Shown in pieces: positions 8,591 through 63,767 of a DNA stretch of 64,000 nucleotides; the stretch's first letter is position 1; each line of letters opens with the position of its first letter. This stretch comes from Thermoanaerobaculia bacterium (GTDB taxonomy: Bacteria; Acidobacteriota; Thermoanaerobaculia; Multivoradales; JAIOJS01). Under the pieces are notes generated by a model, which saw nothing but the letters and a program-made list of their open reading frames with translations, ran no database searches and was not told the DNA's origin. The DNA lies in NCBI GenBank assembly GCA_030429235.1, contig JAUIDB010000007.1:52677-116676 (forward strand), given 5' to 3'. The position numbers and the translations under genes were made by a program.

Positions 8591-8598
8591 CGGCTGGA

Positions 8599-15478: not shown

Positions 15479-16144
15479 CTAGAGGGCGGTCAATTCGAGG
15501 CGACGGGGAAAGCGCTGCGCTAACGACTCGCTGTGGGTCACCGCCACCATCGTGGTGCCCTGCTCCTCCTGGAGTTCGAGCAGCAGGTCCGCCACCCGGT
15601 CGGCGGTGGCCGGGTCGAGACTCCCGGTGGGCTCGTCGCAGAGGAGGAGGCGGGGCCGCAGGACCAGCGCGCGGGCCAGAGCGGTCCGTTGCCGCTCGCC
15701 GCCCGACAGCTCGCCGGGTCGATGCTCGAGACGATGGCTCAGTCCGACCCGGTCGAGAAGCTCACGGCTCCAGCCTTCGTCGCGGGGTGTGTCGGGAAAG
15801 GCCAGACAGGGCAGCAGCACGTTCTCGAGCACCGTGTATTGCGGCAGCAGGTGGTGGTGCTGGAAGACGAACCCGACCCGCTGATTGCGGAAGCGGGCCA
15901 GTTCGGTGTCGTCCAGTGTGGCTAGGTCGACGCCATCGACGAGGATCCGACCCTGGTCCGGCGGTTCGAGGGCCCCGAGGAGATGGAGCAAGGTGCTCTT
16001 GCCACTGCCCGAAGGACCCGTGATCGCCAGGGCTTCTCCCGCTTCGAGGGTTAGCGAGAGGTCCTTCAGCACCTCCACCCGCGAGTCGCCCAGGCGGTAG
16101 CCTTTGCCCACCGCTTCGAGGTACACCCGACCCCGGTCGCTCAC
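15479..16144 (-). CDS. ABC transporter ATP-binding protein (LolD/MacB-type)
   Basis: Walker A GPSGSGKST, signature LSGGERQR, Walker B LLLCDEPTGSLD. 221 aa. Confidence 0.9.
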   Translation of the reverse strand: MSDRGRVYLEAVGKGYRLGDSRVEVLKDLSLTLEAGEALAITGPSGSGKSTLLHLLGALEPPDQGRILVDGVDLATLDDTELARFRNQRVGFVFQHHHLLPQYTVLENVLLPCLAFPDTPRDEGWSRELLDRVGLSHRLEHRPGELSGGERQRTALARALVLRPRLLLCDEPTGSLDPATADRVADLLLELQEEQGTTMVAVTHSESLAQRFPRRLELTAL

Positions 16145-16578
16145 GCCGGACTCCGAGGTTCGAGGGCGTCGATCGCCGCCGCCAGGGGTTCGGGGATCGG
16201 CACCAGCTCGAGGCTCTCACCCCCCACCCGACAGCAGACCGAGGCCAGCTCGCCGCGGGCGACGAGCCGCTCCTCCACCGACAGTTCGAACGAGAAGGTC
16301 AGAGAGCTGCGTCCGCGCCGGGACACCGCCACCGCGATGGCGACCTCGTCGCCGAAGCGCAGGGGACTCTTGTAGTCGCACTCGGCGTGGACCCTCGGCC
16401 AGCCAATGGCGACGCCCTCGACTTCGGTGTGCACCTCGAATCCGAGCGCCTGGCGAAAGGCGTGCTCGGCCGTTTCCATGAAGATGAAGTAGCGCGAGAA
16501 GTGCGCGATTCCGGAGAGGTCGGTATCGGCGAACTCTACGCGGCGATGGACGATGAACGGAGTCTTCACGGCGCCCAT
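16141..16578 (-). CDS. Acyl-CoA thioesterase, hotdog fold (YbgC/4HBT-like)
   Basis: 145 aa. N-terminus HRRVEFADTDLSGIAHFSRYFIFMETAEHAF is typical of the 4HBT family. 4-nt overlap with the downstream ABC ATPase start. Confidence 0.75.
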   Translation of the reverse strand: MGAVKTPFIVHRRVEFADTDLSGIAHFSRYFIFMETAEHAFRQALGFEVHTEVEGVAIGWPRVHAECDYKSPLRFGDEVAIAVAVSRRGRSSLTFSFELSVEERLVARGELASVCCRVGGESLELVPIPEPLAAAIDALEPRSPA

Positions 16579-16658: not shown

Positions 16659-18050
16659 TCAGTCCTGGCGCGCCAGGAGTTGGTCGAACCCGTGGATTCG
16701 GATGCGCAGCAGGTCGTCCTGGCTCAGGTTGGTCATCCCGCGGTCCGCCAACTCCCGGACCAGATCTGGCGTCACGCCGTGGATTCGGAAGGCGAGGAGA
16801 TCGTCGCTCGACAGGTCGCCGTAGCCGACCTCGGCCATCGATTGGATGAAAGCTGGCGTCACCCCGTGGATCCGGAAAGCGAGGAGATCGTCCGCCGACA
16901 GGTGGTCGAACCCCGCCGCCCGCATCGATTCGATGAACTCGGTGGAGACCCCGTGGATACGGAAGGCCAAGAGGTCGTCTTCGCTCAAGTGCCGGTAGCC
17001 CTGACGGGCGAGTTCGTCGGCGTAGGCGGCGGTGACGCCATGGATCTTGCGGGCGATCATCTGCTTCAGGTCCGGTGGGCTCTGCCCGGCCTCGATCTCC
17101 GCCTCGATCTCCGCCACTTCGATACCGTGGACTCGCAGTTCGATGAGACGATGTGGAGGCAGCTTTCGATACCCCAGGCGCTCGAGCTGCTCGATGAAGG
17201 TGGGCGTGACCCCGTGGATCGAGAAGGCCAGCAGGTCTTCGTCGTCGAGCCCAGGGTAGCCCGCGCGCTCGAGGTCGGCGACGAAGGCGGGCGTGATGCC
17301 GTGGATGCGGCGGGCTACCAGGTCGCGGAGCCGAGGAAGGGGCTCACCGGCCGCGATCTGAGCCCGCACCTCGTCGAGGTCGACGCCGTGGATTCGGACT
17401 TCCAACAGCTGGTCGGGGCTGGGGCGACCGTAACCGAGTTCGTCGAGCTCGCGGATGAACTCGGGCGAGACGCCGTGGATGCGGAGGGCCACCGCATCGT
17501 CGAGCCCGAGGTCGTAGCCCAACGCTTCGAGGCCTTCTAGATAGGCCAGAGAGAGATCGATGAGAGCGAGAAAGGGGGCTTCCTCGTGCACCTCCTCGAC
17601 CGGGAATCCACGCTGGTGCAGGGCTCGCTGGTATTCGAGGTTCGGAGCGAAGGAGAAGACGCCGGCCTCACGGTAGCCTCGCCGTTCCTCCAATTCGAAC
17701 CGGAAGGTCCCGGCCTCACGCTCGAGCCGATAGCCGCCGCCTTCCAGAGGCACGAGGGCATCCCGCTGCCGTTGAGAGAGGGTCGTTCCAAAGCGGTTGC
17801 GCTGCCGCTCGTCGCGCAGGGTGAGGTGGGCCTCTCCCCCGGGGCGGGACTCGAGCGACCAGCGACCGGTGGCCAACGACTGGCCGGTACGGGAGGTCGA
17901 CAGCGTATCGCCGGGGTCCGGTGTGAGCGGAGAGGGTCCCATCCAACTCGTGCCGGGTGGTACTCCGACGAGCAGGGTCAGACCGGCGAGAGCGGTAGCA
18001 CGGAACCATCGTGGCAGGAGGGGGGCAAGGGAGGAGGCGGATCGCGTCAT
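16659..18050 (-). CDS. Secreted tandem-repeat protein (about nine 37-aa repeats, consensus LxxDDLLAFRIHGVTPEFIxxMxxxGY)
   Basis: 463 aa. N-terminal signal peptide (ATALAGLTLLVGVPPG). A non-repetitive ~160-aa region precedes about nine near-identical repeats, visible at DNA level as ~111-bp tandem repeats. The antisense ORF 16578..17540 is an artefact of the repeats. Confidence 0.6.
   Translation of the reverse strand: MTRSASSLAPLLPRWFRATALAGLTLLVGVPPGTSWMGPSPLTPDPGDTLSTSRTGQSLATGRWSLESRPGGEAHLTLRDERQRNRFGTTLSQRQRDALVPLEGGGYRLEREAGTFRFELEERRGYREAGVFSFAPNLEYQRALHQRGFPVEEVHEEAPFLALIDLSLAYLEGLEALGYDLGLDDAVALRIHGVSPEFIRELDELGYGRPSPDQLLEVRIHGVDLDEVRAQIAAGEPLPRLRDLVARRIHGITPAFVADLERAGYPGLDDEDLLAFSIHGVTPTFIEQLERLGYRKLPPHRLIELRVHGIEVAEIEAEIEAGQSPPDLKQMIARKIHGVTAAYADELARQGYRHLSEDDLLAFRIHGVSTEFIESMRAAGFDHLSADDLLAFRIHGVTPAFIQSMAEVGYGDLSSDDLLAFRIHGVTPDLVRELADRGMTNLSQDDLLRIRIHGFDQLLARQD
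16673..17543 (-). repeat. In-frame ~111-bp tandem repeats (x~8-9) inside CDS 16659..18050
   Basis: Recurrent DNA unit such as gtcacgccgtggattcggaaggcgaggagatcgtc, encoding RIHGVTP...DDLLAF. Confidence 0.6.
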
Positions 18051-18160
18051 GAGGGACTTCCTGGGGTAGAGATTGGGTGGGGTCTACCTCGGAACTACCG
18101 TGGCCGGGCGCAGAGGTTACGCCGTTGGCATCTGGCGGGCCCAGCGGTCAGAATGGGGCG

Positions 18161-18637
18161 ATGGAGAACCTGTGGAAGAAACTACAGCTCGCGACGGTCG
18201 ACCGAGTCGTGCTGCTCGAGGCGCCGGAGAGTTTCCGGAGCGCCGAGCAGGCGTTGGGAGACGTCGAGGTCGTGCGGAGTCTGGAGGAGGTGGAGGCGGT
18301 CGGGTTCCTTCTCGCGTTCGTCCGAAGTGCCGGCGAGATCCCCGTGGTGGCGAAGGCCTTGGACGGTCGCTTCGCCGAGGATCCCACCGTGTGGCTGGCC
18401 TATCCCAAGAAGTCCTCGAAGCGGTACGAGAGTGACATCGAGCGAGACCACAGCTGGCGTCCGTTGGGTGAGCTCGGATTCGAGGCGGTTCGCCAGGTGG
18501 CGATCGACGAAGACTGGTCGGCGTTGCGGTTTCGACGGGTCGAGCAGATCGCGACGCTGCGGCGGGATCCGCGGCGGGCGATGACGGTCGAAGGCAAGCG
18601 CCGTGCTGCCTCGGCGACCCGCCGAGACGGCGACTAG
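18161..18637 (+). CDS. DUF3052-like hypothetical protein
   Basis: ATG at 18161 (MENLWKKLQ). Motifs VVLLEAPESF, FLLAFVRSAGEI and VWLAYPKKSSKRYESDIERD...DEDWSALRFRR follow the DUF3052 layout. The track ORF starts earlier (18077) in the same frame. Confidence 0.55.
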   Translation: MENLWKKLQLATVDRVVLLEAPESFRSAEQALGDVEVVRSLEEVEAVGFLLAFVRSAGEIPVVAKALDGRFAEDPTVWLAYPKKSSKRYESDIERDHSWRPLGELGFEAVRQVAIDEDWSALRFRRVEQIATLRRDPRRAMTVEGKRRAASATRRDGD

Positions 18638-19962
18638 GGGGTAGAACCCGAACCGGTCGTGGCCGAGTCCGCGGCCAGGATCGACCGATAGACCGCCAGT
18701 GTTCGCTCGGCCATCGTCGTGTCGTCGAAGTCGCGGTGGACGGCGGCCCGGCCGGCCGTGGCGAGTCGTCGTCGGGTGGGCTCGTCGTCGAGGAGCCGAC
18801 GCAGGCTGCCGGCGAGGGCGCTGATCGAACCGGCGGCGTGCAGTACGCCGCCGCCGGTGGCGCGCACCATCTCGGGGAAGGAGCCGTGGTCGGGGAGAAC
18901 CGTGGGGACTCCCGCGGCCATCGCTTCGAGGGCAGAGAGTCCCTTGGCCTCGCGGTAGGTGGTGGGAAGAGCGAACAGGTGGACCCGGCCCAAGAGACCG
19001 AGTTTTCCGGCCCGGTCGACCTCCCCCAGGTACTCGAAACGATCGGCGAGCCCCCACGCCTCGACCTGTTGTCGGAGTCCGGCGAAGTACGCCTGGTCGC
19101 GGGTTCCCAGGTAACCGGCGGCCAGGATGCGGGTGCTGTCGTCGCCCTCGTCGCGCAGGGTCCGCAGAGCGGCGACCAGGTGGTGCAGGCCCTTCTCGGG
19201 GCAGATCCGGGCCAGGAAACCGATGGTCGGCGGACCCGTCGGGTCGGCGGCGGTGTAACCGTCGAGGGAGATGCCGAGGGGCACGACCGCGATCCGGTCC
19301 GGTTCGACAGCGAGTCGATCGGCCATCGCGTCCGCGTAGTACCGACTGGGGGCGAGAAAGCGATCGACCTCGGCGGCGCGCCGGCGCATCTCGGTTTCCG
19401 CGGCCTTGCGGTGGCTCGGGAGCAGGTCGTCGAGGAAGAGGTCCTCGCCCTGGAGCGAGACCACGACGGGTACGCCGACTTCGCGGCGCAGCTGTCGGAC
19501 GAGACCGAGGAACAGCGAATTGGTGATGTGGATGACGTCGGGCTGGAGCTCCCGCAGCCAGCGACAGAGCTTGTCGAGTTCCTTGCGTTGCGGGCCCGCC
19601 TCCCCTTGCAGCACGGCCAGCGTCAGTTCGCCCAGCTCGCGGGCGTCGGTCGAGCCGGCAAACCGCGACACCCAACGCAGCAGACCGCGTTGATCGAGGA
19701 GTCGGTCGAGGAACCGGGGGGTGTGGCGGAAGAGCCCCGTCTTGAGCTGGAGGTAGACGTTGATGGCACCGTAAAACACCCGACCCTGGCTGACGTTCGG
19801 CTCGTCGGTTCGCATCGGGGTGTAGGTAGGGATCAACGTCACGTCGTGTCCCAGTTGGAGCATGGCGGCGGCCAGCGCGTTGTCGTGGATGCAGCTGCCG
19901 CAGTACATCCCGGCGGCGCCCGCCGCGATGTAGGCGACCTTCAGCGGCGTAGGCTCCGTCAT
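18634..19962 (-). CDS. Glycosyltransferase family 4 (GT-B) with N-terminal CGSC motif
   Basis: 442 aa. N-terminus MYCGSCIHDNALAAAMLQLGHDV. C-terminal GT4 sugar-donor motif region (EAKGLSALEAMAAGVPTV). 4-nt overlap with the upstream SSS gene. Confidence 0.8.
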   Translation of the reverse strand: MTEPTPLKVAYIAAGAAGMYCGSCIHDNALAAAMLQLGHDVTLIPTYTPMRTDEPNVSQGRVFYGAINVYLQLKTGLFRHTPRFLDRLLDQRGLLRWVSRFAGSTDARELGELTLAVLQGEAGPQRKELDKLCRWLRELQPDVIHITNSLFLGLVRQLRREVGVPVVVSLQGEDLFLDDLLPSHRKAAETEMRRRAAEVDRFLAPSRYYADAMADRLAVEPDRIAVVPLGISLDGYTAADPTGPPTIGFLARICPEKGLHHLVAALRTLRDEGDDSTRILAAGYLGTRDQAYFAGLRQQVEAWGLADRFEYLGEVDRAGKLGLLGRVHLFALPTTYREAKGLSALEAMAAGVPTVLPDHGSFPEMVRATGGGVLHAAGSISALAGSLRRLLDDEPTRRRLATAGRAAVHRDFDDTTMAERTLAVYRSILAADSATTGSGSTP

Positions 19963-21449
19963 ACCGACTCCTCGCTCCCTTCGCCGAAGAAGCGACCGAG
20001 GTGGGCGGTCGAAGGCGCCTGTGAGAACCAGGAGCCGAGCAGCAGAGCGGCGGCCGAAGCGAGCAGAAGCTGGGCGATCGGCGGCGCGCCGTGGCCGTGG
20101 CCCCAGGAGCGCCAGAGTAGGACACTCCAGCCGATGGCGGTGGTCAGCAGACAGGCCACCGCCCCGGTAGCGGTCGACCGGCGCCAGTAGAGAGCGGCCA
20201 GCACCAACGGCAGCAGGCCGGTGAAGCCGGTGAACGACCAGATCCCCAGACGGAAGATCGTGCTCTCGACCGTGATCGCCAGGACGAAGGCCACCACCAT
20301 GACCAGCGCCACTCCGAGCCGTCCCCAGAAGAGCTGTCGGGTTTCGCTGCCCTGCGCTCCTCCGAGACCACGACTGATCAGGGTACCGAGGGCGAGGACC
20401 TGGGAGTCGAGAGAGGACATCACCGCCGCCAGCACACCCGCCGCCAGGACCCCGGCCATGATGGCCGGCGTGTGACCTTCGATCAGTCGGATCAGGATCG
20501 AACTGGCAGCCGGACCCTCGAGGCCGGGGAGGACCACGGCTCCGACCACGCCGAGCAGCACGCTCGGAAGCCAGACGGCTGCCACGCAGAGGGGGTAGGC
20601 CACGACCGGCAGTCGAAACGCCGCCTGACTTCGTGCCGTCAGCCAGTGCATGAAGAGGTGGGGAAACATGCCGACCGAAAGCGGCACCAGGGTGTAGGAG
20701 AGCATCTCTCGGGGCGTGATCAGGTCACCGCGCACCAGGAGTTCGGGTCGTTCGCGCTGGGCGCTGTCGAGGATTGCCTCCAGCCCTCCCACGCTCCGCA
20801 GGATGAGGAGGGTCGCCACCCCGCCCAGGACCACGAACACCGTGGTCTGCAGGGCGTTGGCCCAGGCGGTGCCCCGGGCTCCTCCCAGGCTCACGTAGGT
20901 CAGGACCACTGCACACAGCAGGAGCGATCCGACCCATTCGGCGATCACTCCGCTCGTAATCTGGGAGAGGGTGAGGCCGGCGCCCTTGATGCCGATCAGG
21001 AGGTAGGGCAACAGGAAGAGCACGACGATCGGCAGCAGCAGCTTGCCGACCACCGCCGAACCCCAACGGGCCTCGAAGAGTTCGGTCTGGGTGACGAACC
21101 CGTGGCGTCGGCCAAGGCGCCACAGCGGTCGGCCGACGAAGAGAAAGACGACGGGTACGACCAACGCCGAGGACGAGGCCATCAGGGCGAAGACCCCGAT
21201 CCCCCGCCGGTACGCTTCGCCGGAGGCTCCCAAGAGGGAGAACGCCGTCATGTGCGTGCCGAACAGGGAGAGCAGCAGCAGGAGCGGCCCGATCGAGCGG
21301 CTGGCCACGAAGTAGTCCTCACCGGTGCTCTGCAGGCGGATGCGGCTCGCCACTCCCACCCCGAGGACGAGGCAGAGGTAGAGCGCGATGACGAAGAGGG
21401 TCACTGCGACTGGCTCCGCGGGGCGTCGAGGCGACGCACCACCCACCAC
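19959..21449 (-). CDS. Sodium:solute symporter (SSS) family transporter
   Basis: 496 aa with about 13 TM helices. N-terminal YFVASRSIGPLLL motif typical of SSS. Confidence 0.85.
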   Translation of the reverse strand: MVGGASPRRPAEPVAVTLFVIALYLCLVLGVGVASRIRLQSTGEDYFVASRSIGPLLLLLSLFGTHMTAFSLLGASGEAYRRGIGVFALMASSSALVVPVVFLFVGRPLWRLGRRHGFVTQTELFEARWGSAVVGKLLLPIVVLFLLPYLLIGIKGAGLTLSQITSGVIAEWVGSLLLCAVVLTYVSLGGARGTAWANALQTTVFVVLGGVATLLILRSVGGLEAILDSAQRERPELLVRGDLITPREMLSYTLVPLSVGMFPHLFMHWLTARSQAAFRLPVVAYPLCVAAVWLPSVLLGVVGAVVLPGLEGPAASSILIRLIEGHTPAIMAGVLAAGVLAAVMSSLDSQVLALGTLISRGLGGAQGSETRQLFWGRLGVALVMVVAFVLAITVESTIFRLGIWSFTGFTGLLPLVLAALYWRRSTATGAVACLLTTAIGWSVLLWRSWGHGHGAPPIAQLLLASAAALLLGSWFSQAPSTAHLGRFFGEGSEESV

Positions 21450-21607
21450 AACGCGGCACTGACCAACCCGCAGTAGAGCAGATGGAAGGTCAAGCCGATC
21501 GGCAGGCCGAGTAGCCGCTGGCTAGCGTTCCACCACCAGAGGTCCTGATGGAGCAGGAAGAGGACCAGCAGCAGAGCGGCGATCGCGGCGCGGCCGAAAC
21601 CGCTCAC
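21401..21607 (-). CDS. DUF3311 small membrane protein (SSS-transporter partner)
   Basis: 68 aa with two TM helices. Overlaps the SSS start. DUF3311 proteins are typically encoded immediately upstream of SSS genes. Confidence 0.55.
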   Translation of the reverse strand: MSGFGRAAIAALLLVLFLLHQDLWWWNASQRLLGLPIGLTFHLLYCGLVSAALWWVVRRLDAPRSQSQ

Positions 21608-22893
21608 GAGACGGGTTCGGCCGGCTGGTCCGCGAGGTGGGCATCGAGGTCGGCCAGCAGTCCGGCCGGCGAACGCTCGAAGACGCGCCCCACGAGCATG
21701 TCCACCAGGTCCTGGCGGCGGTGCGGATAGGCCCGGAGGAAGGATCCGAAGTGGAAGTCCGGGTCGTAGTAGGCACGCACCAGCCGCTTGAGGGCATCCA
21801 GGCCGGCCGTGAACTCGGCCTCGAAGCGCCCCAACGAGGCCGCCGACAGGTCGTCGTCGCGCAGCGCCGCGTCGATGGCGTCGGCCGCCATCTCCCCGGA
21901 GGTCAACGCCAGGAAGACGCCGGTCGAATAGATCGGGTCGAGGAATCCGAAAGCGTCACCGACCAACACCCAGCCGTCGCCGCTGAGGGATCGACTGCGG
22001 TAGGAAAAGTCGCGCAGCGCGGTCACCGGCAGGACCCGCTCGGCCTCCGCCAGGCGTTCGGCCAGCGCCGGGCAGTCGGCGAGTTCCTCTTCGAACACGA
22101 TCTGAGGGTCAGCGGTCCGGCCGTCGATGAGGTGCGTGAGGGGGGCCACCACCCCGACACTCGCGAGGTCTTCCGGAAGGGGGATGAACCAGAGCCAGGC
22201 GCGCCGGCTCGACGTCTGATAGATGATGGTCGCCCCTTCGTCGCGGCCGGAGTCCCGCCGAGCCCTGCGGTAGTGGGTGAAGAAGCTGACGTTGCGGTCG
22301 AGACCCGGCTCCTCGTGGCGCAGGCCGAGCTTCCGGGCGATGAGGGTGCTCTGGCCGGTGGCGTCCACGACCACGCGGGCGCTGACCTGACGCTCGGCGC
22401 CGTCGCGCCGCAGGCGAACCCCGGTGGCGCGGCCCTGGTCATCGAAGAGAACCTGTCGCACCTGAGTTCCGACCTCGACGGTGGCTCCACAACGTTCGGC
22501 ATTGCGGCGCAGCATCGGGTCGAACTCGGAGCGCAGGACCTGCCAGGTCTGGGCGCGCTCTCCGAGGTCGGTCTCGGTGAAATAGAAGGGCGCGGAGGCG
22601 CGCCCTCCTCCCGAGAAGAACTGCACGCTGTGCTTGGCCGGGAAGTGGCTACGGCGCATTTCGTCGAGAACACCGAGGCGATGCAGGACGTCGAAGGTCG
22701 CCGGCATCAGCGACTCGCCGATCCGAAACTCGGGCTGCGCCGCCTTCTCCACCAGCAGCACCCGGTGGCCCAGTTGGGCCACCAGAGCGGCAACGGTGGC
22801 GCCGGCCGGCCCTCCTCCCGCTACGACCACGTCGTAGTCAGAGGGGGGGCTACTGAGAGGCTCCTCGGTACCGACGGTCGGGACATGCGACAA
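21604..22893 (-). CDS. FAD-dependent oxidoreductase of the flavin-halogenase (tryptophan halogenase-like) family
   Basis: GxGxxG (VVAGGGPAGATV). WxWxIP motif (AWLWFIPL). FLDPIYSTG motif. Positions aligning to PrnA Lys79 and Glu346 appear to be Asp and Tyr (hand alignment). Confidence 0.75.
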   Translation of the reverse strand: MSHVPTVGTEEPLSSPPSDYDVVVAGGGPAGATVAALVAQLGHRVLLVEKAAQPEFRIGESLMPATFDVLHRLGVLDEMRRSHFPAKHSVQFFSGGGRASAPFYFTETDLGERAQTWQVLRSEFDPMLRRNAERCGATVEVGTQVRQVLFDDQGRATGVRLRRDGAERQVSARVVVDATGQSTLIARKLGLRHEEPGLDRNVSFFTHYRRARRDSGRDEGATIIYQTSSRRAWLWFIPLPEDLASVGVVAPLTHLIDGRTADPQIVFEEELADCPALAERLAEAERVLPVTALRDFSYRSRSLSGDGWVLVGDAFGFLDPIYSTGVFLALTSGEMAADAIDAALRDDDLSAASLGRFEAEFTAGLDALKRLVRAYYDPDFHFGSFLRAYPHRRQDLVDMLVGRVFERSPAGLLADLDAHLADQPAEPVS

Positions 22894-22951
22894 GGGTGGG
22901 GTCCTCCGGGTCGAGATGAAGGGGCGGTAGGCCCCGCAGCAGATCAGACGA

Positions 22952-25117
22952 TCAGAATCGTACCTCGACTCCTAGCCGGGCACCGAACGGCGAACCGGGG
23001 ATGGCCGAGTTCGAGCCAAACCCGCGGCTCTCGTACTCGGTGTCGGCGAGGTTGTCGAGATGCAGCGAGAAGCGCCATCGGGGCAGGGAGTAGATCAGAC
23101 TGGCGTCGAGGATCGAGTAGGCGTCGATCTCCGCCGCGTTGTCTTCGGCCAGGAACTGGTCGTCGACGTATCGTGCTCCCAGGCTCGCGACCCAGGAGCC
23201 GACGTGGTGGCTGACCCAGAGCGTCGCCAGGTGCTCGGGAGAGAGCGCCGAGCGGTTGCCGGAGCGGTCGAAGACGAGGAACGGCGGATTGCTGCCGGTC
23301 GGGACCAGCTCCGAGAATCGGGTCAAGGTGGAGTCGGTGTAGGCGTAGACGAAGGTGGCGCGGGTCTGGTCCGAGAGGCGAGCCCTGAACTCGAGCTCCA
23401 ATCCCTGCGCCTCCTGGTCTCCGATCTGTTGCGTGAAGCCGTTGTCGTCGGCGATGGCGATGTTGTCGCGCACGATCTCGAACAGCGCCACCGACACGGT
23501 GCCGCGGCCGCCCCAGAGTTCGTGGCGGGCGCCGATCTCGATCTGCTGACTCTCTTCGGGCTGTCGCTCTCCGACCACCCGGGCGGAGGGGGGAGCGAAG
23601 GAGCGGGCGCTGTTGGCGTAGATCGAGAACCGCCGGTTTGGCGAGTAGACCAGTCCGACTAGCGGCGACAGTTCGTCGTCGGAGCGAGAATCACCGCGCA
23701 CGGAGTCCTCGAATTCGATCCGGTCGAAGCGCGCGCCGAGGAGCAGTTGCCAATGCTCGGAGAGCGCCATCTGGTCGATGAAGTAAGGGGCCAGGATCTC
23801 GGTGGTCGAGTTGCCGGCCTGGTGTTGACTGGGGAGGAAGAAGAGCGGTTCGCTGGCCGTCTCTACCGGAGCGAGCAGGTCCATGAAGGGCAAGATGGCG
23901 ACGTCGAGGGTGTACTCGTCCTCGAGGCGAGCGATCTCGAGGCCGAACAGGAAGCGGTGCTGGATCGAGCCGGTGTCCAGACTCCAGACCACCTCGGACT
24001 GGTTGCCGAGAAAGCTCTGGTCGTCGTCGAGGGCGGTCAGGGTCCGAGCCAGGGTGAGGCGCCCGCCGGCGAACGGATTGGGGAACACTCCCGACATCAG
24101 GGTGCCGGTGGACTCCCAGTCGAGTCCTCGGAGGTAGCTCTTGTTGCGCAGGGTGAGGCGGTCGGAGACCTGGTGCTCGACGTCGACCTGGAACCGCGTG
24201 ATGTCCTGCTCCGAGAAGTCGAAGGGTGAACCGTAGGATCGCTTGCGATCGATCTCGGAGAGCAGTTCGCCGCCGACGAGGGGGAGTCCGCCATCGGGCA
24301 GGAAGTCGGAGGATGCGAGTTCGACGTTGAAGTGGAGGCTGGTGCGATCGTCGGGCCGCCAGCCGAGCACCGGATTGACCGCGATCACCTCGCTGTCGGT
24401 CGCGTCCCGGTAGCCACCGCGCTCACGGTAGATGCCGTTGAGGCGAAAGGTCAGGGCGTCGCCCCCCAGAGGTTGATTGAGATCGATCTGCGCCTCGGTG
24501 GTGTCGAAGCTGCCCCCGGCGAGTCGCGCGATGCCGAACGAAGTCGGCGTCGGCTGCTTACGGACCAGGTTGACCGCCGCCGCCAGAGGGTTGCTGCCGT
24601 AGAGGAAACCCGCCGGGCCCTTGAAGACCTCGACCCGTTCGGTGTTGTACATCTGGTAGAACGTGGCCTCGGGTTCGGGGGCTCCGTCGGTCAGGACGAG
24701 TCCGCTCGAGGTCGAGTCGAATCCACGCACGATGAAGAGGTCGAACACGCCGTTGCCGGTCTGCGCGTTGACTCCGCTCACTCCGGCCAGGGCGTCGCCG
24801 AGCACCTCGGCTCCTTGCTCGATCAGCAGATCGGCGGAGACGACGCCGACGTGAGCGGGGGTCAGAGCGAGCGGCACCGGAAGCTTGGTGGCGATCGTGT
24901 TCGAAGTCGGAGCGAAGGGTAGGCTCTCCTCGACCAGGAGGCGTTCTTCGAGAACCAGGGCGACTCGACACTCCTGGCTCGACACTTCGGTCGAGTCGCA
25001 GGAATCGTCCTGGCCTCCCTCCTCGGTGGAGAACGTCGGCGGTGCGAGCCAGAGAAGGGCCGCCAGGGCGGCGGTCGCACTCCGGCGGAGAGGCAGAAGG
25101 GTCTTGCTTGGCGTCAT
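22952..25117 (-). CDS. TonB-dependent receptor
   Basis: 721 aa. Signal peptide, plug motifs (VVSADLLIEQGAEVLGDALAGVSGV, VEVFKGPAGFLYGSNP), and a C-terminal aromatic terminus (LGVEVRF). Confidence 0.85.
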   Translation of the reverse strand: MTPSKTLLPLRRSATAALAALLWLAPPTFSTEEGGQDDSCDSTEVSSQECRVALVLEERLLVEESLPFAPTSNTIATKLPVPLALTPAHVGVVSADLLIEQGAEVLGDALAGVSGVNAQTGNGVFDLFIVRGFDSTSSGLVLTDGAPEPEATFYQMYNTERVEVFKGPAGFLYGSNPLAAAVNLVRKQPTPTSFGIARLAGGSFDTTEAQIDLNQPLGGDALTFRLNGIYRERGGYRDATDSEVIAVNPVLGWRPDDRTSLHFNVELASSDFLPDGGLPLVGGELLSEIDRKRSYGSPFDFSEQDITRFQVDVEHQVSDRLTLRNKSYLRGLDWESTGTLMSGVFPNPFAGGRLTLARTLTALDDDQSFLGNQSEVVWSLDTGSIQHRFLFGLEIARLEDEYTLDVAILPFMDLLAPVETASEPLFFLPSQHQAGNSTTEILAPYFIDQMALSEHWQLLLGARFDRIEFEDSVRGDSRSDDELSPLVGLVYSPNRRFSIYANSARSFAPPSARVVGERQPEESQQIEIGARHELWGGRGTVSVALFEIVRDNIAIADDNGFTQQIGDQEAQGLELEFRARLSDQTRATFVYAYTDSTLTRFSELVPTGSNPPFLVFDRSGNRSALSPEHLATLWVSHHVGSWVASLGARYVDDQFLAEDNAAEIDAYSILDASLIYSLPRWRFSLHLDNLADTEYESRGFGSNSAIPGSPFGARLGVEVRF

Positions 25118-25231
25118 GCTGTGGCGTATCCAGACCGAGCTCGAAGCATCGGCACTTGTTGTTCTCGTGGTTCTCGGGACCTGCTGCCTTCGCGGCCCGG
25201 TCCCGATGGTGAGGGCGACTCTACTGCAGGA

Positions 25232-26515
25232 TCAGCGGCCGACGGCGAGGGCGACCATCTCGGATTGCGAACGAAGGTAGAGGATGCCGTCGGCCAGGGC
25301 CGGCTGGCCCCAGGTCCGTGCCTTGAAGGGTCGACTCTCGGCGCTGGCTTCGAAGCCATCGGGGGAAGCCTTGCCGATCAGCAGCTGCCCCTGTTCCCCG
25401 AACACGATCAGCTGGCCGTCGGCATAGATCAGCGATCCCTTGCCCAGTCCGCGGTGTCCCCAGTGCTCTTCGCCACTGACCGCGTCGATGCACTTGAGCG
25501 TGCCGTTGTCGAAGCCGTAGATCTTGCCGTCGACCAGGACCGAGCTGTTGAAGTGGTTGCGCATGCCGCGACTCTTCCAGACCTCTCGGGTCACGAAGTC
25601 CTCACCCTCCTTGTCGATACGAAAGAAGGCCGCGCCGACGTCGTAGGCCGAAGAGAAGAAGACCCCGTTCGGGGGCACGAACACCGGCATCGCCGCGTTG
25701 ACGTCGTAGGAGGTGCGCCACGGGATCTCCCAGTAGCGGTCGCCGTTGTCTGCATCGATCGAAACCAGGCCCGCTGCGGTGAAGAAGAGCACCTGGGGCG
25801 TGCCGGCGATGGTCACCGCCAGCGGTGACGAGTAGCCGGGAGACTCGTTGCCCGAGGCCCAGTTGAGAGAGCCGGTCGCGGTGTCGAAGGAGGCCACCGA
25901 GTGTCCGCGGCGTCCGCCGACCTCGACCAGGAGTTGGTCGCCGAGCACCAACGGTGATCCCGAGATCCCCCACTGCGGGATCTTGGCACCGTACTCTTCG
26001 ACCAGGTCGACCTTCCAGCGCACCGTTCCGCTCTCGGCGTCGAGGGCAGCGAGCTTCCCGAGCGCGCCGAGGACGTACACGCTGTCGCCGGCGACGGTGG
26101 GCGTAGCGCGGGGGCCGCCGCCCTGACCATCGGGACGGTCGCGGTCGATGATCTGCTTCCACAGGCGCTGGCCGGTCTTGGCGTCGTGAGCGACGGCCAT
26201 TTCGGTACCGGCCGAGGAGACCAGGGTGTGGACCCGACCGTCCGCGACCGCCATCGACGAGTAGCCTAGGTCTCCCACGTTGACGCGCCAGAGTTCTTGC
26301 GGCCCGGTTTCCGGCCACGCCGCCCGCAGCTTCTCAGTGGCGGCATGGCCATCGCGGTCGTTGCCCCGGTACTGCGTCCAGTCGGCAGCTCCCGCGGGCA
26401 GGGTCAGTAGGGCTCCGAGCGTGGCCACGCAGAGAAGAAAAGGCACGGGGCGGGGGGTCGTGGGCATAGGTCCTCCGGCGGGGTCGAGCGGTTGAAGGTC
26501 AGGTGTAGCGGGCAC
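25232..26515 (-). CDS. PQQ-like beta-propeller repeat protein (secreted)
   Basis: Signal peptide, then DWTQYRGNDRDG, then about eight blades with hydrophobic-Ala-Leu-Asp/GxxxW loops. Confidence 0.75.
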   Translation of the reverse strand: MPATPDLQPLDPAGGPMPTTPRPVPFLLCVATLGALLTLPAGAADWTQYRGNDRDGHAATEKLRAAWPETGPQELWRVNVGDLGYSSMAVADGRVHTLVSSAGTEMAVAHDAKTGQRLWKQIIDRDRPDGQGGGPRATPTVAGDSVYVLGALGKLAALDAESGTVRWKVDLVEEYGAKIPQWGISGSPLVLGDQLLVEVGGRRGHSVASFDTATGSLNWASGNESPGYSSPLAVTIAGTPQVLFFTAAGLVSIDADNGDRYWEIPWRTSYDVNAAMPVFVPPNGVFFSSAYDVGAAFFRIDKEGEDFVTREVWKSRGMRNHFNSSVLVDGKIYGFDNGTLKCIDAVSGEEHWGHRGLGKGSLIYADGQLIVFGEQGQLLIGKASPDGFEASAESRPFKARTWGQPALADGILYLRSQSEMVALAVGR

Positions 26516-27866
26516 CGCGATAGCGGTCGGCGTAGAAGCGCGGGAGCAGCGAGTCGACGCGCAGCAGCCCGTCGGTGGTCAGGACGATCTCGTCGGGCCC
26601 AAAGTCGAGCATTCCTTCGTCGCGCAGGGCGGTGAGCGGCTCGTACCAACGCTGGACGACGTCGACCCCGAACTTCGCGGCAAACGGGGTGGTGGCGAGT
26701 CGACCGAGCTTGAGCTGCAGGATGAACTCCCGGGTGAGACGGTCCTCTTCGCTGGTGACGAAGGCGCGGGCGACCGTCGACTCGCCGCGCGTGGCCCGGG
26801 CGAGGTACTCTCCCCAGCCGTCGAGGTTCTGGAAGTGCACTCCCGACAGGTGCGAGAACGAGGCCACGCCGGTTCCCAGGAGATCGCAGCCCTGCCACAC
26901 CGAGTTGCGGTAGACGAAGCGTTGCTTCGGCTCCTTGACCATGGTGTAGGCGCTCGACTGGTGGTAGCCGGCGGCGGCGAGCTGTTCGAAGGCGTAGAGC
27001 TGCCAGGCGCGCTTCTGGTCCCAGTCGGCGAAGGAGTTGTCGACCTCGCCCTGCATCAGACCCTTGGCGTAGCGGGTGTTGAAGGGCAGTTCGAGTTGGT
27101 AGATGGTCACGCTGTCAGGGGCGAGGTCGACGGTACGGGCGACCGTGTCGCGCCAGGCGGTCCAGTTCTCTCCCACCATGCCGGCGATCAGGTCGATGTT
27201 GAGCTGCTCGAAGCCGAGTTCCTCGATCCACGGCAGGCACCGCCAGATCTCCTTCGAGACGTGGGCTCGGCCGTTCTCGCGCAGCACCTCGTCGTCGAAG
27301 TTCTCGATGCCCAACGACAGGCGGGTGACCCCGATGGCGCGGATCGCCTCCAGTTTGCTGCGGGTCAACGTGCCCGGCTCGCACTCGAAGGTGACCTCTT
27401 CGACCCCGTTCCAGGGCAGGGCTCCCTGCACCCGCTCCACCAGTCGATGGAGGTGCTTGACCGAGAGGTAGGACGGCGTCCCGCCGCCGAAGTAGACAAA
27501 ACGCAGTGGCCGTCCCGCCACGGCGGGCTGCTGAGACAGGGCTTCGACTTCGGCGGCCAAGGCATCGACGTAGCTGCCGATCTCGTCGAAGTTCTTGTCG
27601 GTGTAGACCCGGAAGTAGCAGAATTTACAGCGCTTGCGGCAGAACGGGATGTGGAGATAGAGGCCGAGCGGCGTCGCCGTCTGCGGTGGGCCGCTCAGGG
27701 CCCTTTCGACGGCTGGCACCGCCTCCTCGCTCCAGGCCGAGTACGGGGGGTAGTTCGAGACGAAGACACTGCCGACTTCGGTCTCGGGCGTTGCCATCCC
27801 CGCAGTCGCCGGTTCGGGGCGCTCGATCGGAGGGGTAGAGGAGGTCGAACTGGGGTTCTGCGTCAT
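26499..27866 (-). CDS. HemN-like radical SAM protein (HemW/HemN/ChuW family)
   Basis: CxxxCxxC cluster LYLHIPFCRKRCKFCYF, then GGGTPS. 455 aa. Subfamily cannot be resolved from sequence alone. Confidence 0.8.
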   Translation of the reverse strand: MTQNPSSTSSTPPIERPEPATAGMATPETEVGSVFVSNYPPYSAWSEEAVPAVERALSGPPQTATPLGLYLHIPFCRKRCKFCYFRVYTDKNFDEIGSYVDALAAEVEALSQQPAVAGRPLRFVYFGGGTPSYLSVKHLHRLVERVQGALPWNGVEEVTFECEPGTLTRSKLEAIRAIGVTRLSLGIENFDDEVLRENGRAHVSKEIWRCLPWIEELGFEQLNIDLIAGMVGENWTAWRDTVARTVDLAPDSVTIYQLELPFNTRYAKGLMQGEVDNSFADWDQKRAWQLYAFEQLAAAGYHQSSAYTMVKEPKQRFVYRNSVWQGCDLLGTGVASFSHLSGVHFQNLDGWGEYLARATRGESTVARAFVTSEEDRLTREFILQLKLGRLATTPFAAKFGVDVVQRWYEPLTALRDEGMLDFGPDEIVLTTDGLLRVDSLLPRFYADRYRGARYT

Positions 27867-28306
27867 CTTGGGACCTTCTGCCGCGGTGCTGTCCGGGTGG
27901 TGGTTTGGGGGGAGCTGGGGCGAGCCGGCGGCAGTATAGCAACGGCTACGCCTTAGGTACGGAGGCTACGCCGCAGGGTTGCGGCCAACCCGCCGGCCAC
28001 TCCGAAACACCGTCTCGGGTCCGGTCGGTGCGGTGGGCTCCGGTGCCGGACCAGGCTGGGTTCGGAGGTCATCCGAGGTGCGTCGTCCCGCAGATCGACC
28101 CTCCTCGGACCCAGGGAAAGCCTGGCTGGGGCGAGTCGGATGGCCCGAGTCGCCTGGCGGGAGCTGGGTCCTCTGTCCTCTCTGGCGCGGGAGTGTCATC
28201 TCCCGGGGGCGTCCGGGTGCCCGGAGAGGACGGCCGACGGCAACGACTCGTCGGAGAAGGCCGGCTTGGGGCAGGTGCCGCGGCTGGTATGGTCTGTGCA
28301 GTCAAA

Positions 28307-28326
28307 ACTGTCGAGACATCGACAGT
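28307..28326. promoter_or_regulatory. Perfect 8-bp inverted repeat ACTGTCGA-gaca-TCGACAGT, ~25 bp upstream of the VWFA gene in a locally AT-richer patch
   Basis: Seen directly in the 485-bp divergent intergenic region between the radical-SAM operon and the VWFA gene. Candidate operator or structured 5' leader. Confidence 0.3.
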
Positions 28327-28350
28327 CCTCTACCGACCCGGAGTTTCGCC

Positions 28351-29973
28351 ATGCGACACATCGCCTCCCTTTCTTCTGGCGCGGCCCTGCTACTGGCCCT
28401 GGTCTCGACCTTCCCGGGGGGAGGGGCGCGGCCGGCAGTGGCGCAGGCGAACCCCGGCGCTGGTGTGGAGGCCTTCGGCGAAACCGTCGACGTCCACCTG
28501 GTGACGGTGGAAGTCTCGGTCAAGGCTTTCTTGGGTGAGCGCAACCACATGGAGTTCACCGCCGAAGACTTCGAAATCTACGAGGACGGCGAGCCGCGAC
28601 CGATCACCCACTTCGAGAGGATGGCTGAGGGTCAGATGTCGAGCGTGGTCGCGCCGGTCGCGGCGGCGGGATCTTCCGTCGTCGGCACCCCGCGTACCGT
28701 TCCCCGCTCGGTGGTTCTCGCCTTCGACCTCGCGAGCCTCCGGGGTCACGAGATCCAGCGTGTGGCCCAGCGCGCGTTGCACTACGTCGAGACCTCGGCC
28801 GACCCGACGGTACGCTGGGCGATCGTCACCGTCGGTCCAGGGTCGCGGGTTCTCCTGCCGTTCACCGCTGAAAGGCCTGCCCTGCGGGCGGTCTTGAATT
28901 CGCTCACGGATCAGGCGCCAGGGGTTCCGATCATGGGCTGGGGAGTCGGTTCGTTCATCGATCTGCCCGAGCCAGCGCCCGAGGAGCCTCTTCCTACTGA
29001 CCAGGAGCGGTTCGCTGATCTCCAGTCGGTGGACCAGCTTATCGGGTACAGCACGTCTCGCGTGGCCAAGATGCGGGCGCACGCCCTCTTCGACTCGTTG
29101 CGCCAGCTGCTGCAAGGTTGGTCGAGCCTCGAGGGCGCCAAGGACCTGGTGATGTTCTACCGGCCGGGCCTGAGCTACCTACCCCCCAACTCGGGCCGGG
29201 TCTCGATCTCGGACCTGCACCAGATCCACGAGGAGGTCGAGGACGTGGCCCGCTGGGCGGCGGCGGCTGGTTTCAGCCTGCACGCTCTCGACGCAGGGGG
29301 CTTGTCGAATCCGGCCGTGGATGACCAGGCTCGAAGCCTGACAGACGGGCATACGGTGCCCCAGGCCCTGGCGGTGGAGAGCGGAGGCCGCCACCTGGCT
29401 CTCAACGATCTCGGGCGGGGCCTCGATCTGGCCACCGACCGTTCCCGCAATCACTATCGGCTCTCCTTCCAGGTCGCGCGGGCCGCCGATGGCCGGGAGC
29501 ACGAGATCGAGGTCAAGCTGCGGCACCCCGGGCTGTTCCGGGTGCGGCACCCGACCACCTACCTCGACCTGACTCCGCGGCAGCGGCTGCTGCACCAACT
29601 CGCGACTTCGGCCAACATTCCCAAGACGGCGGATCGGCTACCGGTGGCTCTGGTGGTTCGGGTCCTGCCCGAACGGAAGGGTCGGATGCCCCTGCACGCG
29701 TTGCTCTCGGTTCCGGCCGAGCGTCTCGGGCTACTCTGGGACGAGGAGCGGCGGACCGCCGAGGTCGAGTTCTTTCTCGCCGTCTACGACGCGCGGGGGG
29801 AGCTGATGGCGGTCGAGAGCGAACGACGCAGTGTCGAGCAGCCGGCGACCGGCGAGCAGCTCAGCCAGGTGTTCTCGACCGAGCTACCGGCCGGGAACTA
29901 CACCATCGCCATGGAGGCGCTCGACACCGTCGATGGCAACGTCGGGATGGACTACGCTCAGATCCACCCCTAG
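28351..29973 (+). CDS. VWFA-related Acidobacterial domain protein (TIGR03436-like)
   Basis: ATG at 28351 (MRHIASLSSGAALLLALVS). Signature N-terminal block VDVHLVTVEVSVKA...FTAEDFEIYEDGEPRPITHFER. The track ORF starts earlier (27979) in the same frame, but the signal peptide begins at 28351. Confidence 0.75.
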   Translation: MRHIASLSSGAALLLALVSTFPGGGARPAVAQANPGAGVEAFGETVDVHLVTVEVSVKAFLGERNHMEFTAEDFEIYEDGEPRPITHFERMAEGQMSSVVAPVAAAGSSVVGTPRTVPRSVVLAFDLASLRGHEIQRVAQRALHYVETSADPTVRWAIVTVGPGSRVLLPFTAERPALRAVLNSLTDQAPGVPIMGWGVGSFIDLPEPAPEEPLPTDQERFADLQSVDQLIGYSTSRVAKMRAHALFDSLRQLLQGWSSLEGAKDLVMFYRPGLSYLPPNSGRVSISDLHQIHEEVEDVARWAAAAGFSLHALDAGGLSNPAVDDQARSLTDGHTVPQALAVESGGRHLALNDLGRGLDLATDRSRNHYRLSFQVARAADGREHEIEVKLRHPGLFRVRHPTTYLDLTPRQRLLHQLATSANIPKTADRLPVALVVRVLPERKGRMPLHALLSVPAERLGLLWDEERRTAEVEFFLAVYDARGELMAVESERRSVEQPATGEQLSQVFSTELPAGNYTIAMEALDTVDGNVGMDYAQIHP

Positions 29974-32307: not shown

Positions 32308-32318
32308 CAGGTAGCCGG

Positions 32319-59198: not shown

Positions 59199-63767
<4,569 letters not shown>

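Follow-up and report, generated by a model that had tools for sequence, protein, structure and literature searches.

The 64-kb stretch of Thermoanaerobaculia DNA analysed here (the window; ~68% G+C) contains seven minus-strand genes that encode, in order of transcription, a radical S-adenosylmethionine (SAM) enzyme, a PQQ_2-type β-propeller, a TonB-dependent receptor, a flavin-dependent halogenase, a small DUF3311 membrane protein, a sodium:solute symporter (SSS) and a family 4 glycosyltransferase (GT4). These genes are the core of an uncharacterised cluster, extending from about 7.5 to 39.2 kb with ~19 conserved genes in the window, whose arrangement recurs in other genomes far beyond chance. 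The cluster is a genuine, widespread and uncharacterised variant of halogenase-centred aromatic pathways. The reading that we prefer, and in which confidence and doubt are about equal, is that this multi-phylum orphan cluster couples an intact phenol-type halogenase to a HemN-like radical SAM enzyme of its own, with an aromatic acid of the hydroxybenzoate type as substrate. An earlier annotation made from the DNA sequence (the first-pass annotation) had the seven open reading frames (ORFs), their coordinates and their domains right, as established by an ORF check, family scans and an independent gene call, and every motif that it quoted (CRKRCKFC, GGGPAG, AWLWFIPL, FLDPIYSTG, PATFDVL and the GT4 CGSC) is present. 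Its description of the flavin enzyme as a halogenase that cannot halogenate is, as judged by sequence alignment, a misalignment.

Active site, class and fold of the halogenase

The flavin enzyme carries the GxGxxG FAD-binding motif as GGGPAG (residues 26-31) and the WxWxIP motif as WLWFIP (residues 233-238), with FLDPIYSTG at residues 317-325. In 14 orthologs with 54-74% identity, G26, G28, P29 and G31 of the first motif, W233, W235, I237 and P238 of the second, and a lysine, K87, are invariant. A phmmer search of PDB sequences returned only halogenases as top matches, led by FasV (8zop; 215 bits), CndH (189 bits), PltA (182 bits) and Bmp2 (181 bits) and including Mpy16, CmlS and ChlB4, with E values of 1e-52 to 1e-62 for the alignments to CndH, PltA, Bmp2 and FasV. 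In these alignments, FPAKHSVQF of the query stands opposite FPIKRGGTF in CndH, FPKKFGAAW in PltA and FPDKPGVNV in Bmp2. Both phmmer and MAFFT equate K87, in one of eight invariant MAFFT columns, with K76 of CndH (counted on the 3e1t chain), the catalytic lysine, and with K79 of PrnA, a number that a residue count on the PrnA N-terminus in the MAFFT alignment reproduces. The Asp of PATFDVL (D68), which the first-pass annotation had placed opposite K79, aligns with PrnA K57, so the hand alignment behind the supposed loss of the catalytic lysine had been shifted by one helix. The position of PrnA Glu346 is indeed occupied by a tyrosine (Tyr322), as had been claimed, but CndH, PltA and Bmp2 have Phe there and FasV has Leu, so that the tyrosine is uninformative on activity, a non-acidic residue being a trait common to the window enzyme and the solved phenol/pyrrole halogenases rather than a loss. 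Comparison with PrnA/RebH had been suggested earlier as a means to confirm that both residues are gone; in the alignments made here, which include PrnA, the Lys is retained and Tyr stands at the Glu position.

On these alignments the flavin enzyme is a halogenase of the phenol/pyrrole class (CndH/PltA/Bmp2/FasV) that bears every sequence hallmark of activity, and its active site is, by sequence, competent. An AlphaFold (AF2) model of the enzyme (pLDDT 87.7, pTM 0.88), compared by Foldseek with FasV, Bmp2, PltA, ChlB4 and Mpy16, gave template modelling (TM) scores of 0.82-0.89 with E values of 1e-36 to 1e-39, a result that, together with the invariant lysine and WxWxIP, runs counter to the view that the enzyme probably cannot halogenate. 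Identity to the solved FasV and CndH-class halogenases is 28-33% in structure-based alignments, and FasV (8zop), CndH (3e1t), PltA (5dbj), Bmp2 (5bva), Mpy16 (5buk) and ChlB4 (7fco) share with the window enzyme the fold, the FAD motif, WxWxIP and the catalytic Lys. Membership of the tryptophan halogenases finds no such agreement: no PrnA/RebH-type chain was matched at E <= 1e-5 in the phmmer search of PDB sequences, and Pfam PF04820 matches the enzyme only in two pieces.

A dedicated radical SAM partner and its distribution

Orthologs of the halogenase number in the thousands. A scan limited to one genome per species gave 80 loci, which span Acidobacteriota (Thermoanaerobaculia, Vicinamibacteria and others), Latescibacterota, Poribacteria, KSB1, Gemmatimonadota, Armatimonadota and many Planctomycetota; partner genes were counted over 84 loci with 10-kb flanks, many of them truncated. 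The radical SAM gene is the most constant partner (<= 10 kb from the halogenase in 47 of the 84 loci), followed by genes for a hotdog thioesterase (35), a propeller designated PQQa (31), the GT4 (25), an iron-containing alcohol dehydrogenase (Fe-ADH; 24), the TonB receptor and the SSS (23 each) and an ABC ATPase (22). The full gene order is shared in Acidobacteriota and much of the set is present in Latescibacterota, Poribacteria, KSB1, Gemmatimonadota and Planctomycetota. Dozens of genomes have the same gene order at 44-80% protein identity, in keeping with the earlier suggestion of a dedicated, co-inherited pathway. In a neighbour-joining tree of the halogenases, a radical SAM gene lies within 10 kb in 38 of 53 members of the window's clade and in none of 17 basal Planctomycetota, in which nearly all other partners are also missing. 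The loci of Vicinamibacterales are reduced to a radical SAM-halogenase-thioesterase triad, with the stop of the radical SAM gene overlapping the halogenase start and the thioesterase as the sole further conserved partner. The neighbours of these minimal loci, and of two-gene planctomycete loci, are unrelated housekeeping genes and give no further clue to the pathway.

The radical SAM enzyme has a CRKRCKFC cluster motif of the CxxxCxxC type, a GGGTPS sequence, a radical SAM core and a C-terminal domain that resembles HemN_C weakly (20 bits against a cut-off of 24), features that place it by sequence in the HemN-like superfamily. PDB matches are HemN (126 bits, 1olt aligned over residues 39-440) and NocN (107 bits). 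The first-pass annotation had called for assignment to HemW, HemN or ChuW/HutW; no NCBIfam cut-off was reached for these or for the related models (bits/cut-off: HutW 187/400, STM4012 182/380, HemN 171/325, HemW 159/205, HemZ 157/321). As far as such scores can place it, this is a HemN-like enzyme (class C type) outside the HemN, HemW, HemZ, ChuW-HutW and STM4012 equivalogs. It is a dedicated partner of the halogenase, and the possibility that it is a housekeeping hemW, raised earlier as a point that would weaken the case for a pathway, sits badly with the HemW score and with the recurrent linkage; nor is it a housekeeping hemN. The 112-bp gap ahead of the radical SAM gene contains a TATACT hexamer, ~60 nt before the start.

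Extent and organisation of the cluster

The features of the cluster in the window are listed in Table 1. In other genomes the order is near-invariant, being propeller-EhpF-like enzyme-aldehyde dehydrogenase (ALDH)-fold protein-Fe-ADH-propeller-radical SAM enzyme-propeller-TonB receptor-halogenase-DUF3311-SSS-GT4-thioesterase-ABC ATPase-duplicated FtsX permease, and every protein of one such locus, L003, was recovered in the window by tblastn. The gene set and order of the proposed seven-gene operon are therefore borne out, but the block is a fragment of a larger cluster, bounded by two insertions. One, encoding a von Willebrand factor A (VWA)-domain protein, separates PQQa from the radical SAM gene, which are adjacent in other genomes; the other lies between the thioesterase and GT4 genes, where other genomes have nothing. 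It is these insertions into a cluster that is contiguous elsewhere that give rise to the apparent seven-gene boundaries, and since the VWA insertion splits the ancestral operon, the radical SAM gene would require a new promoter within the 112-bp gap that precedes it. The two ORFs of the second insertion have a coding-like GC3 bias, match no Pfam or NCBIfam family and have no homolog in the 84 related loci.

Table 1. Conserved genes and inserted ORFs of the halogenase cluster, by position in the window
Feature	Position	Strand	Matches and remarks
TAXI-type TRAP transporter	7565-10566	+	Binding protein 7565-8590, fused permease 8443-10566; NMT1_3 200 bits, DctM 247 bits
Duplicated FtsX/MacB-type permease	12065-15466	-	1133 aa; FtsX x2 + MacB_PCD; 44% identical to L003 ortholog in same position
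ABC ATPase (LolD/MacB/DevA type)	15479-16144	-	LolD 251 bits (cut-off 308), DevA 169 bits
Hotdog (4HBT/YbgC-type) acyl-CoA thioesterase	16141-16578	-	4HBT_2 and 4HBT
Insertion ORF	16659-18050	-	Between thioesterase and GT4 genes
Insertion ORF	18077-18637	+	Between thioesterase and GT4 genes
GT4 glycosyltransferase	18634-19962	-	Glycos_transf_1 98 bits, Glyco_transf_4 70 bits
SSS	19959-21449	-	ORF; independent gene call of 481 aa, 19959-21404; SSF 100.6 bits
DUF3311 small membrane protein	21401-21607	-	PF11755 30.6 bits (cut-off 30)
Flavin-dependent halogenase	21604-22893	-	429 aa, TTG start; Pfam Trp_halogenase and FAD_binding_3
TonB-dependent receptor	22952-25117	-	Plug and TonB barrel; TIGR01783 277 bits (cut-off 223.5)
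PQQ_2 (BamB-like) β-propeller	25232-26515	-	PQQ_2 96.5 bits
HemN-like radical SAM enzyme	26499-27866	-	Radical_SAM 80.7 bits; HemN_C weak
VWA-domain insertion	27979-29973	+	TIGR03436 acidobact_VWFA 105 bits (cut-off 81)
Propeller PQQa	29970-31397	-	True start near 31.1 kb; Beta-prop_ACSF4 174 bits, PQQ_2 148 bits
Fe-ADH	31123-32421	-	Fe-ADH 127 bits, ADH_Fe_C 89 bits
Divergent ALDH-fold protein (EhpG-like)	32319-33788	-	Aldedh 46 bits
EhpF-like adenylating enzyme	33794-34978	-	No ANL C-terminal domain; true start probably near 34.86-34.9 kb
PQQ_2 propeller	34909-36477	-	111 bits
PQQ_2 propeller	36330-38600	-	114 bits
Multi-pass membrane protein	38659-39231	-	190 aa; no Pfam match

The window's protein set is identical to the gene calls of public metagenome assemblies, and its nearest named relatives are metagenome-assembled genomes (MAGs) of Thermoanaerobaculia (Acidobacteriota). 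Genes of the seven-gene block overlap by 4 bp or 17 bp, the exceptions being gaps of 58 bp and 114 bp that flank the receptor gene, and the ABC ATPase and thioesterase genes also overlap by 4 bp. A scan of 15.8-31.6 kb is uninformative on operon structure, as its single promoter-like site is on the wrong strand and terminator-like sites are no more frequent than in shuffled sequence; an Rfam scan of 5-42 kb at E <= 1 found no riboswitch or other RNA. PQQa, whose counterparts in other genomes precede the radical SAM gene, shares 55% identity with the one that immediately precedes it in L003, and L003 also has a propeller in the position upstream of the adenylating (ANL) enzyme gene. No NCBIfam equivalog was reached by the Fe-ADH. 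The 190-aa membrane protein has homologs in 18 loci; those of 14 loci, from KSB1, Latescibacterota, Poribacteria, Gemmatimonadota and Acidobacteriota, are 58-70% identical to it and the remaining four 37-42%.

A putative carboxylate-reducing module

The adenylating enzyme aligns end to end with EhpF (PDB 3l2k/3hgu; 153 bits, residues 48-394 against 23-366) and its gene is 5 bp from that of the divergent ALDH-fold protein. In sequence this is a pair of the EhpF/EhpG type, named for the D-alanylgriseoluteic acid pathway of Pantoea agglomerans, in which an adenylating enzyme without a C-terminal ANL domain is likewise followed by a divergent ALDH-fold protein. EhpF and EhpG are reportedly proposed, from the work of Bera et al. 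in 2010, to convert phenazine-1,6-dicarboxylate to the 6-formyl compound. The window has no phenazine genes, however, the proteins are ~35-37% identical to plasmid-borne homologs and the activity of the pair is a prediction from sequence. One such homolog, an 'aldehyde dehydrogenase' of a Burkholderia ubonensis plasmid, matches the ALDH-fold protein over its full length (BLASTP 9e-44); it belongs to a chorismate-derived cluster, where the start of its gene overlaps the stop of an EhpF-like gene. The catalytic Cys motif GGRSCINAS of the ALDH-fold protein is almost fully conserved; by eye, LHGPGWSK replaces ELGGK and a His stands where hydrolytic ALDHs carry the general-base Glu, which fits a reductase role. 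A LuxC/LuxE fatty-acid reductase was also considered for the pair, but there was no LuxE or LuxC match and EhpF was matched instead. The adenylating enzyme is 79% identical to its L003 ortholog, as against 44-67% for the other cluster proteins, and 57-73% identical even to those of Planctomycetota and Poribacteria, an unusually strong constraint for a supposed secondary-metabolism enzyme.

Substrate clues upstream of the halogenase

In 13 loci (mostly Planctomycetota, with one Armatimonadota and one Acidobacteriota) a gene for a ~180-aa protein is immediately upstream of the halogenase gene. The profile of this protein matched the DUF98 structure 2nwi (E 1e-4) and, in an hhalign comparison, Escherichia coli UbiC (probability 82%, E 1e-5); residues aligned with UbiC M34 and R76 are invariant, and JGI names many of the homologs chorismate-pyruvate lyase. 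Because of these profile matches and names we designate the protein chorismate-lyase-like, and its gene upstream of the halogenase points to 4-hydroxybenzoate chemistry. A PaaK-like aryl-CoA ligase is encoded in 14 loci, directly upstream of the halogenase in most, and is clear in the Latescibacterota/Poribacteria relatives. In the window the same slot holds the TonB receptor, and the cluster family thus consists of a conserved core with a variable precursor-supply slot occupied by a chorismate lyase, an aryl-CoA ligase or a TonB receptor. The thioesterase of the window has as its best PDB match 5wh9 (E 5.5e-16), deposited as '4-hydroxybenzoyl-CoA thioesterase'.

The 13 loci, in which the chorismate-lyase-like gene immediately precedes the halogenase gene on one strand and whose halogenases are 46-53% identical to that of the window, have the layout of the baaA-baaB locus of Planctomycetales strain 10988, proposed for 3,5-dibromo-p-anisic acid (Panter et al. 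2019, 10.1101/723874; ACS Chem Biol 14:2713), and a baaA-baaB-like arrangement would imply a 4-hydroxybenzoate substrate. The baaAB locus has two genes and no methyltransferase, whereas the window halogenase belongs to a far larger cluster with a radical SAM enzyme and without the chorismate-lyase-like gene. In one Planctomycetales MAG (L021), genes for a DUF116-polyprenyl synthetase fusion and a squalene-hopene-cyclase-like protein (6217-9128) are directly upstream of the lyase-like gene-halogenase-DUF3311-SSS array; these neighbours might indicate prenylated hydroxybenzoate chemistry in that lineage, or might be coincidental.

Receptor, transporters, propellers and glycosyltransferase

With a TIGR01783 score above the cut-off and Pfam matches to the Plug and barrel domains, the receptor is assigned by sequence to the siderophore receptors; two haem receptor models gave 64 and 51 bits against cut-offs of 317 and 324. 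The closest solved relatives are the enantio-pyochelin receptor 3qlb, the catecholate receptor Fiu, and 5fp1, 5nec and 5fok, deposited only as TonB-dependent siderophore or iron-transport receptors. The receptor is confined to Acidobacteriota/Latescibacterota-type clades. There it co-occurs with the propeller encoded next to it, which has a hydrophobic, signal-peptide-like N-terminal stretch as judged by eye, the two being lineage-specific inserts between the radical SAM gene and the halogenase. A second TonB-dependent receptor is encoded at 5104-7197 (+), just upstream of the TAXI-TRAP genes at the cluster edge, and has no counterpart in the other loci examined. PQQ_2 (BamB-like) propeller paralogs number five in and around the cluster, with one at 10563-12068 (+) in addition to the four in Table 1.

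The SSS scored below cut-off with PanF (118 bits) and with the sss superfamily model (114 bits) and matched SMVT (3e-7) and the symporter NIS (2e-6) in the PDB, results that suggest it belongs to the anion-substrate (PanF/SMVT/NIS-like) branch. Although NIS is the second-best solved relative, a role as a halide symporter found no support, the residue aligned with NIS Q72, an iodide-site residue, being Ser in the window protein and Ala in SMVT. The halogenase-DUF3311-SSS order is also present in Planctomycetota loci L021, L030, L034 and L075, which have their own lyase-like gene, so the SSS does not just stand in for synthesis of the precursor. The TAXI-TRAP transporter is a peripheral but recurring member of the cluster; homologs of its TAXI binding protein are present in 13 loci at 45-64% identity and directly follow the halogenase in Poribacteria. 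TAXI-TRAP transporters are carboxylate importers where characterised. In the rpuS/R locus of Sinorhizobium fredii a DUF3311 gene adjoins a monocarboxylate permease gene, both RpuS-dependent (PMC9100948). The duplicated FtsX/MacB-type permease is likely, from its sequence, to be part of an exporter.

No NCBIfam equivalog was reached by the GT4. Its residues from about 15 to 27 are AGAAGMYCGSCIHDN, in place of the usual GT4 glycine-rich loop, with the motif AGAAGMYCG[ST]C. Both cysteines of this CxxC are kept in 18 of 18 aligned orthologs, across phyla; they may form a redox or metal site and mark a distinct GT4 subfamily.

Relation to described clusters

Orphan clusters designated 'Halo_AMP' have been described in sponge-symbiont Acidobacteriota, Latescibacterota and Poribacteria (Loureiro et al., August 2026, 10.64898/2026.08.03.742642). 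Described independently, they resemble the window cluster and combine a flavin halogenase (whose best match is Bmp2), an adenylating enzyme, an unclassifiable radical SAM enzyme, frequent PQQ-like domains, which the preprint states are rare in known biosynthetic clusters, a glycosyltransferase, a thioesterase, and ABC and TonB transporters. That work covered only sponge and seawater metagenomes and focused on a P450-containing variant, whereas the window cluster has no P450; it made a speculative link to brominated diketopiperazines (barettins), and its text does not mention hydroxybenzoates. By the Halo_AMP criteria the window has the halogenase, but its EhpF-like enzyme scores 24.3 bits with Pfam AMP-binding, below the 29.9 cut-off, so the Halo_AMP detection rule might miss the window variant. 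The Halo_AMP clusters also carry toxin-antitoxin genes (same preprint). Toxin-type or selfish genes (a PIN toxin with a small partner; Uma2-family endonucleases) are inserted in the cluster in several genomes (L002 11319-12037, L020 3819-4406 and L074 7811-9313), and in L002 they replace the DUF3311-SSS pair.

The first-pass annotation had likened the window to Xanthomonas and Caulobacter carbohydrate loci, in which, compared by description only, a protein matching Pfam Trp_halogenase is similarly encoded beside a TonB-dependent receptor. That likeness does not extend far, as the window enzyme is of the CndH/PltA/Bmp2 class and has beside it a siderophore-type receptor that adjoins its orthologs in Acidobacteriota/Latescibacterota-type loci alone. 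Searches of the literature on halogenases with radical SAM enzymes in Planctomycetes and Acidobacteria, on 8ZOP, and on tryptophan halogenases with TonB-dependent receptors found nothing that accounts for the cluster. The nearest published descriptions are the baaAB proposal and the Halo_AMP preprint, neither of which gives the product. The present analysis adds to them the link to hydroxybenzoates, the reductase module of the EhpF/EhpG type, the delimitation of the cluster and its occurrence outside sponges.

The cluster is strongly conserved in abundant, mostly uncultured phyla of soil, sediment, freshwater and sponge microbiomes. Should it make a halogenated benzenoid, natural organohalogens such as bromo- and chlorophenols and anisyl-type compounds would have candidate producers among these bacteria. 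Anisyl-type organohalogens have so far been attributed mainly to fungi and algae. The comparative map makes an orphan cluster accessible to direct enzyme assays and provides three biochemical targets, namely the halogenase subfamily, whose substrate is likely to be simple, the HemN-like radical SAM subfamily and the GT4 subfamily with its conserved CxxC.

A proposed pathway and its weak points

The lyase-like and PaaK-like slot genes, the EhpF and ALDH homologies, the thioesterase match to 5wh9 and the relatives of the receptor and transporters together argue for a hydroxybenzoate-type substrate. The substrate, order of steps and product that we infer are as follows. An aryl acid, most likely 4-hydroxybenzoate or its CoA thioester, would be made by the chorismate-lyase-like enzyme in some phyla and activated by the PaaK-like ligase in others; in the window's lineage it would probably come from general metabolism or an external source. 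The halogenase would act ortho to the hydroxyl and the radical SAM enzyme would modify the aryl substrate, with methylation of an sp2 carbon as the most plausible reaction. The hotdog thioesterase may then free the acid from the thioester, the EhpF/EhpG-like pair convert the carboxylate, via an acyl-adenylate, to an aldehyde, and the Fe-ADH reduce this to a benzyl alcohol, with the GT4 glycosylating the product and the MacB-type ABC/FtsX pump exporting it. The TonB receptor with its presumably periplasmic propeller, the DUF3311-SSS pair and the TAXI-TRAP transporter could import the aromatic precursor or the released product. In its most far-reaching form the scheme has a single system of about 19 conserved genes in six phyla (Acidobacteriota, Planctomycetota, Latescibacterota, Poribacteria, KSB1 and Gemmatimonadota), built on a 4-hydroxybenzoate-type halogenase and a new HemN-like radical SAM subfamily, whose benzenoid product is halogenated, reduced, glycosylated, exported and then recovered by the cell. 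This form is tentative and on balance improbable. If true, bacteria of soils, sediments and sponges would be a so far unrecognised, and perhaps a major, source of natural organohalogens, and the radical SAM enzyme would carry out chemistry on a halophenol that is new for its class.

Several observations weigh against the hydroxybenzoate reading. There is no chorismate-lyase-like gene (six-frame profile search) or PaaK-like gene anywhere in the 64-kb window, so the substrate is deduced from orthologs in other phyla that are only 45-52% identical, and a Pfam scan of ten chorismate-lyase-like proteins found no relevant family. The UbiC-like gene is present alone, without the halogenase, in the cultured planctomycetes Caulifigura coniformis Pan44 and Planctomicrobium SH661, and neither provides a cultured model of the cluster. 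BaaB was likened to the window enzyme by the published description of its arrangement only, and the baaAB assignment itself lacks genetic verification. The cluster genes scanned include neither a flavin reductase nor a carrier protein, and PltA, Bmp2 and Mpy16 act on carrier-protein-bound pyrroles. Three importers are unusual in a purely biosynthetic cluster, the Fe-ADH, ALDH-fold and ANL trio could work in the oxidative direction, the roles given to the radical SAM enzyme and the five propellers are guesses, and no member of the cluster family has a known product.

Alternative explanations

The first-pass annotation saw in the block an uptake-and-modify pathway. With an active halogenase, such a pathway would import an exogenous aromatic acid, for example a lignin- or humic-derived hydroxybenzoate, and halogenate, reduce and glycosylate it, which is possible but on balance improbable. 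The importers it calls for are there, three being conserved with the cluster (receptor, DUF3311-SSS and TAXI-TRAP) and the DUF3311-SSS type being a carboxylate importer where characterised (PMC9100948), and in the window the receptor and propeller fill the slot of the missing chorismate-lyase-like and PaaK-like genes. However, the halogenase-DUF3311-SSS triad also occurs in Planctomycetota loci that have a precursor-making, chorismate-lyase-like gene of their own, the conserved MacB-type exporter argues for a secreted product, and import, modification and re-export would bring no obvious benefit. Export and import are combined differently in a metallophore-like cycle, in which a halogenated phenolate or catecholate leaves by the MacB-type pump, binds metal and returns through the receptor and symporter. 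Hotdog thioesterases and MacB-type exporters occur in siderophore systems, and a receptor above the siderophore-receptor cut-off and closest to pyochelin and catecholate receptors is in accord with such a cycle. We nevertheless regard it as decidedly unlikely: the cluster genes scanned include no nonribosomal peptide synthetase (NRPS), NRPS-independent siderophore synthetase or catechol-forming enzyme, the whole window has no Fur-box-like site at <= 5 mismatches, most phyla with the cluster have no receptor, and the Halo_AMP authors saw no other metallophore traits in their clusters (10.64898/2026.08.03.742642).

An envelope glycolipid pathway, in which the adenylating enzyme, ALDH-fold protein and Fe-ADH turn a fatty acid into a fatty alcohol that receives a sugar from the GT4, perhaps also a halogen, and reaches the outer membrane through the DevA/LolD-like system, would accommodate the resemblance of the ABC ATPase to LolD and DevA, the presence of GT4, thioesterase and FtsX permease genes, which are typical envelope genes, and a wide distribution and adenylating-enzyme conservation that look more like core physiology. 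The sponge preprint also reports frequent matches to the bartoloside glycolipid exporter protein BrtI, of unstated gene class (10.64898/2026.08.03.742642). This is a faint prospect, given that the adenylating enzyme matches EhpF, an aromatic-acid enzyme, and not LuxE, that halogenases of this class act on activated aromatic or enolate carbons, that in other phyla the cluster itself includes chorismate-lyase-like and PaaK-like genes, and that no fatty-acid or polyketide synthase genes are among the cluster genes scanned. It is very improbable that the flavoprotein lacks halogenase chemistry, as first annotated, and that its part in an uptake pathway is that of a monooxygenase or reductase. Tyr322 and the sub-cut-off matches to QhpG (147 bits), geranylgeranyl reductases (142 bits) and LodB (106 bits) could be read in that way, but K87 and WxWxIP are invariant, the Glu is missing from all of the active phenol/pyrrole halogenases aligned and the best sequence and fold matches are all halogenases. 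Barely credible, finally, is anaerobic haem uptake and degradation of the chu/hut kind, with haem imported by the receptor and its ring opened by a ChuW/HutW-like radical SAM enzyme. ChuW/HutW is the best NCBIfam match of the radical SAM enzyme, whose gene is two genes from that of the receptor, but the score is far below the cut-off and the HemN, HemW and STM4012 models score alike, the receptor passes the siderophore model and falls far short of the haem models, and the radical SAM-halogenase pair occurs without a receptor in Vicinamibacterales, Poribacteria and Planctomycetota.

Flanking genes

Divergent from the cluster, the region 39489-42445 (+) encodes a 507-aa protein of the nitronate monooxygenase (NMO) family and a canonical aldehyde dehydrogenase (452 bits). 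A 1522-aa ORF (59199-63767, +) is present near the end of the window.

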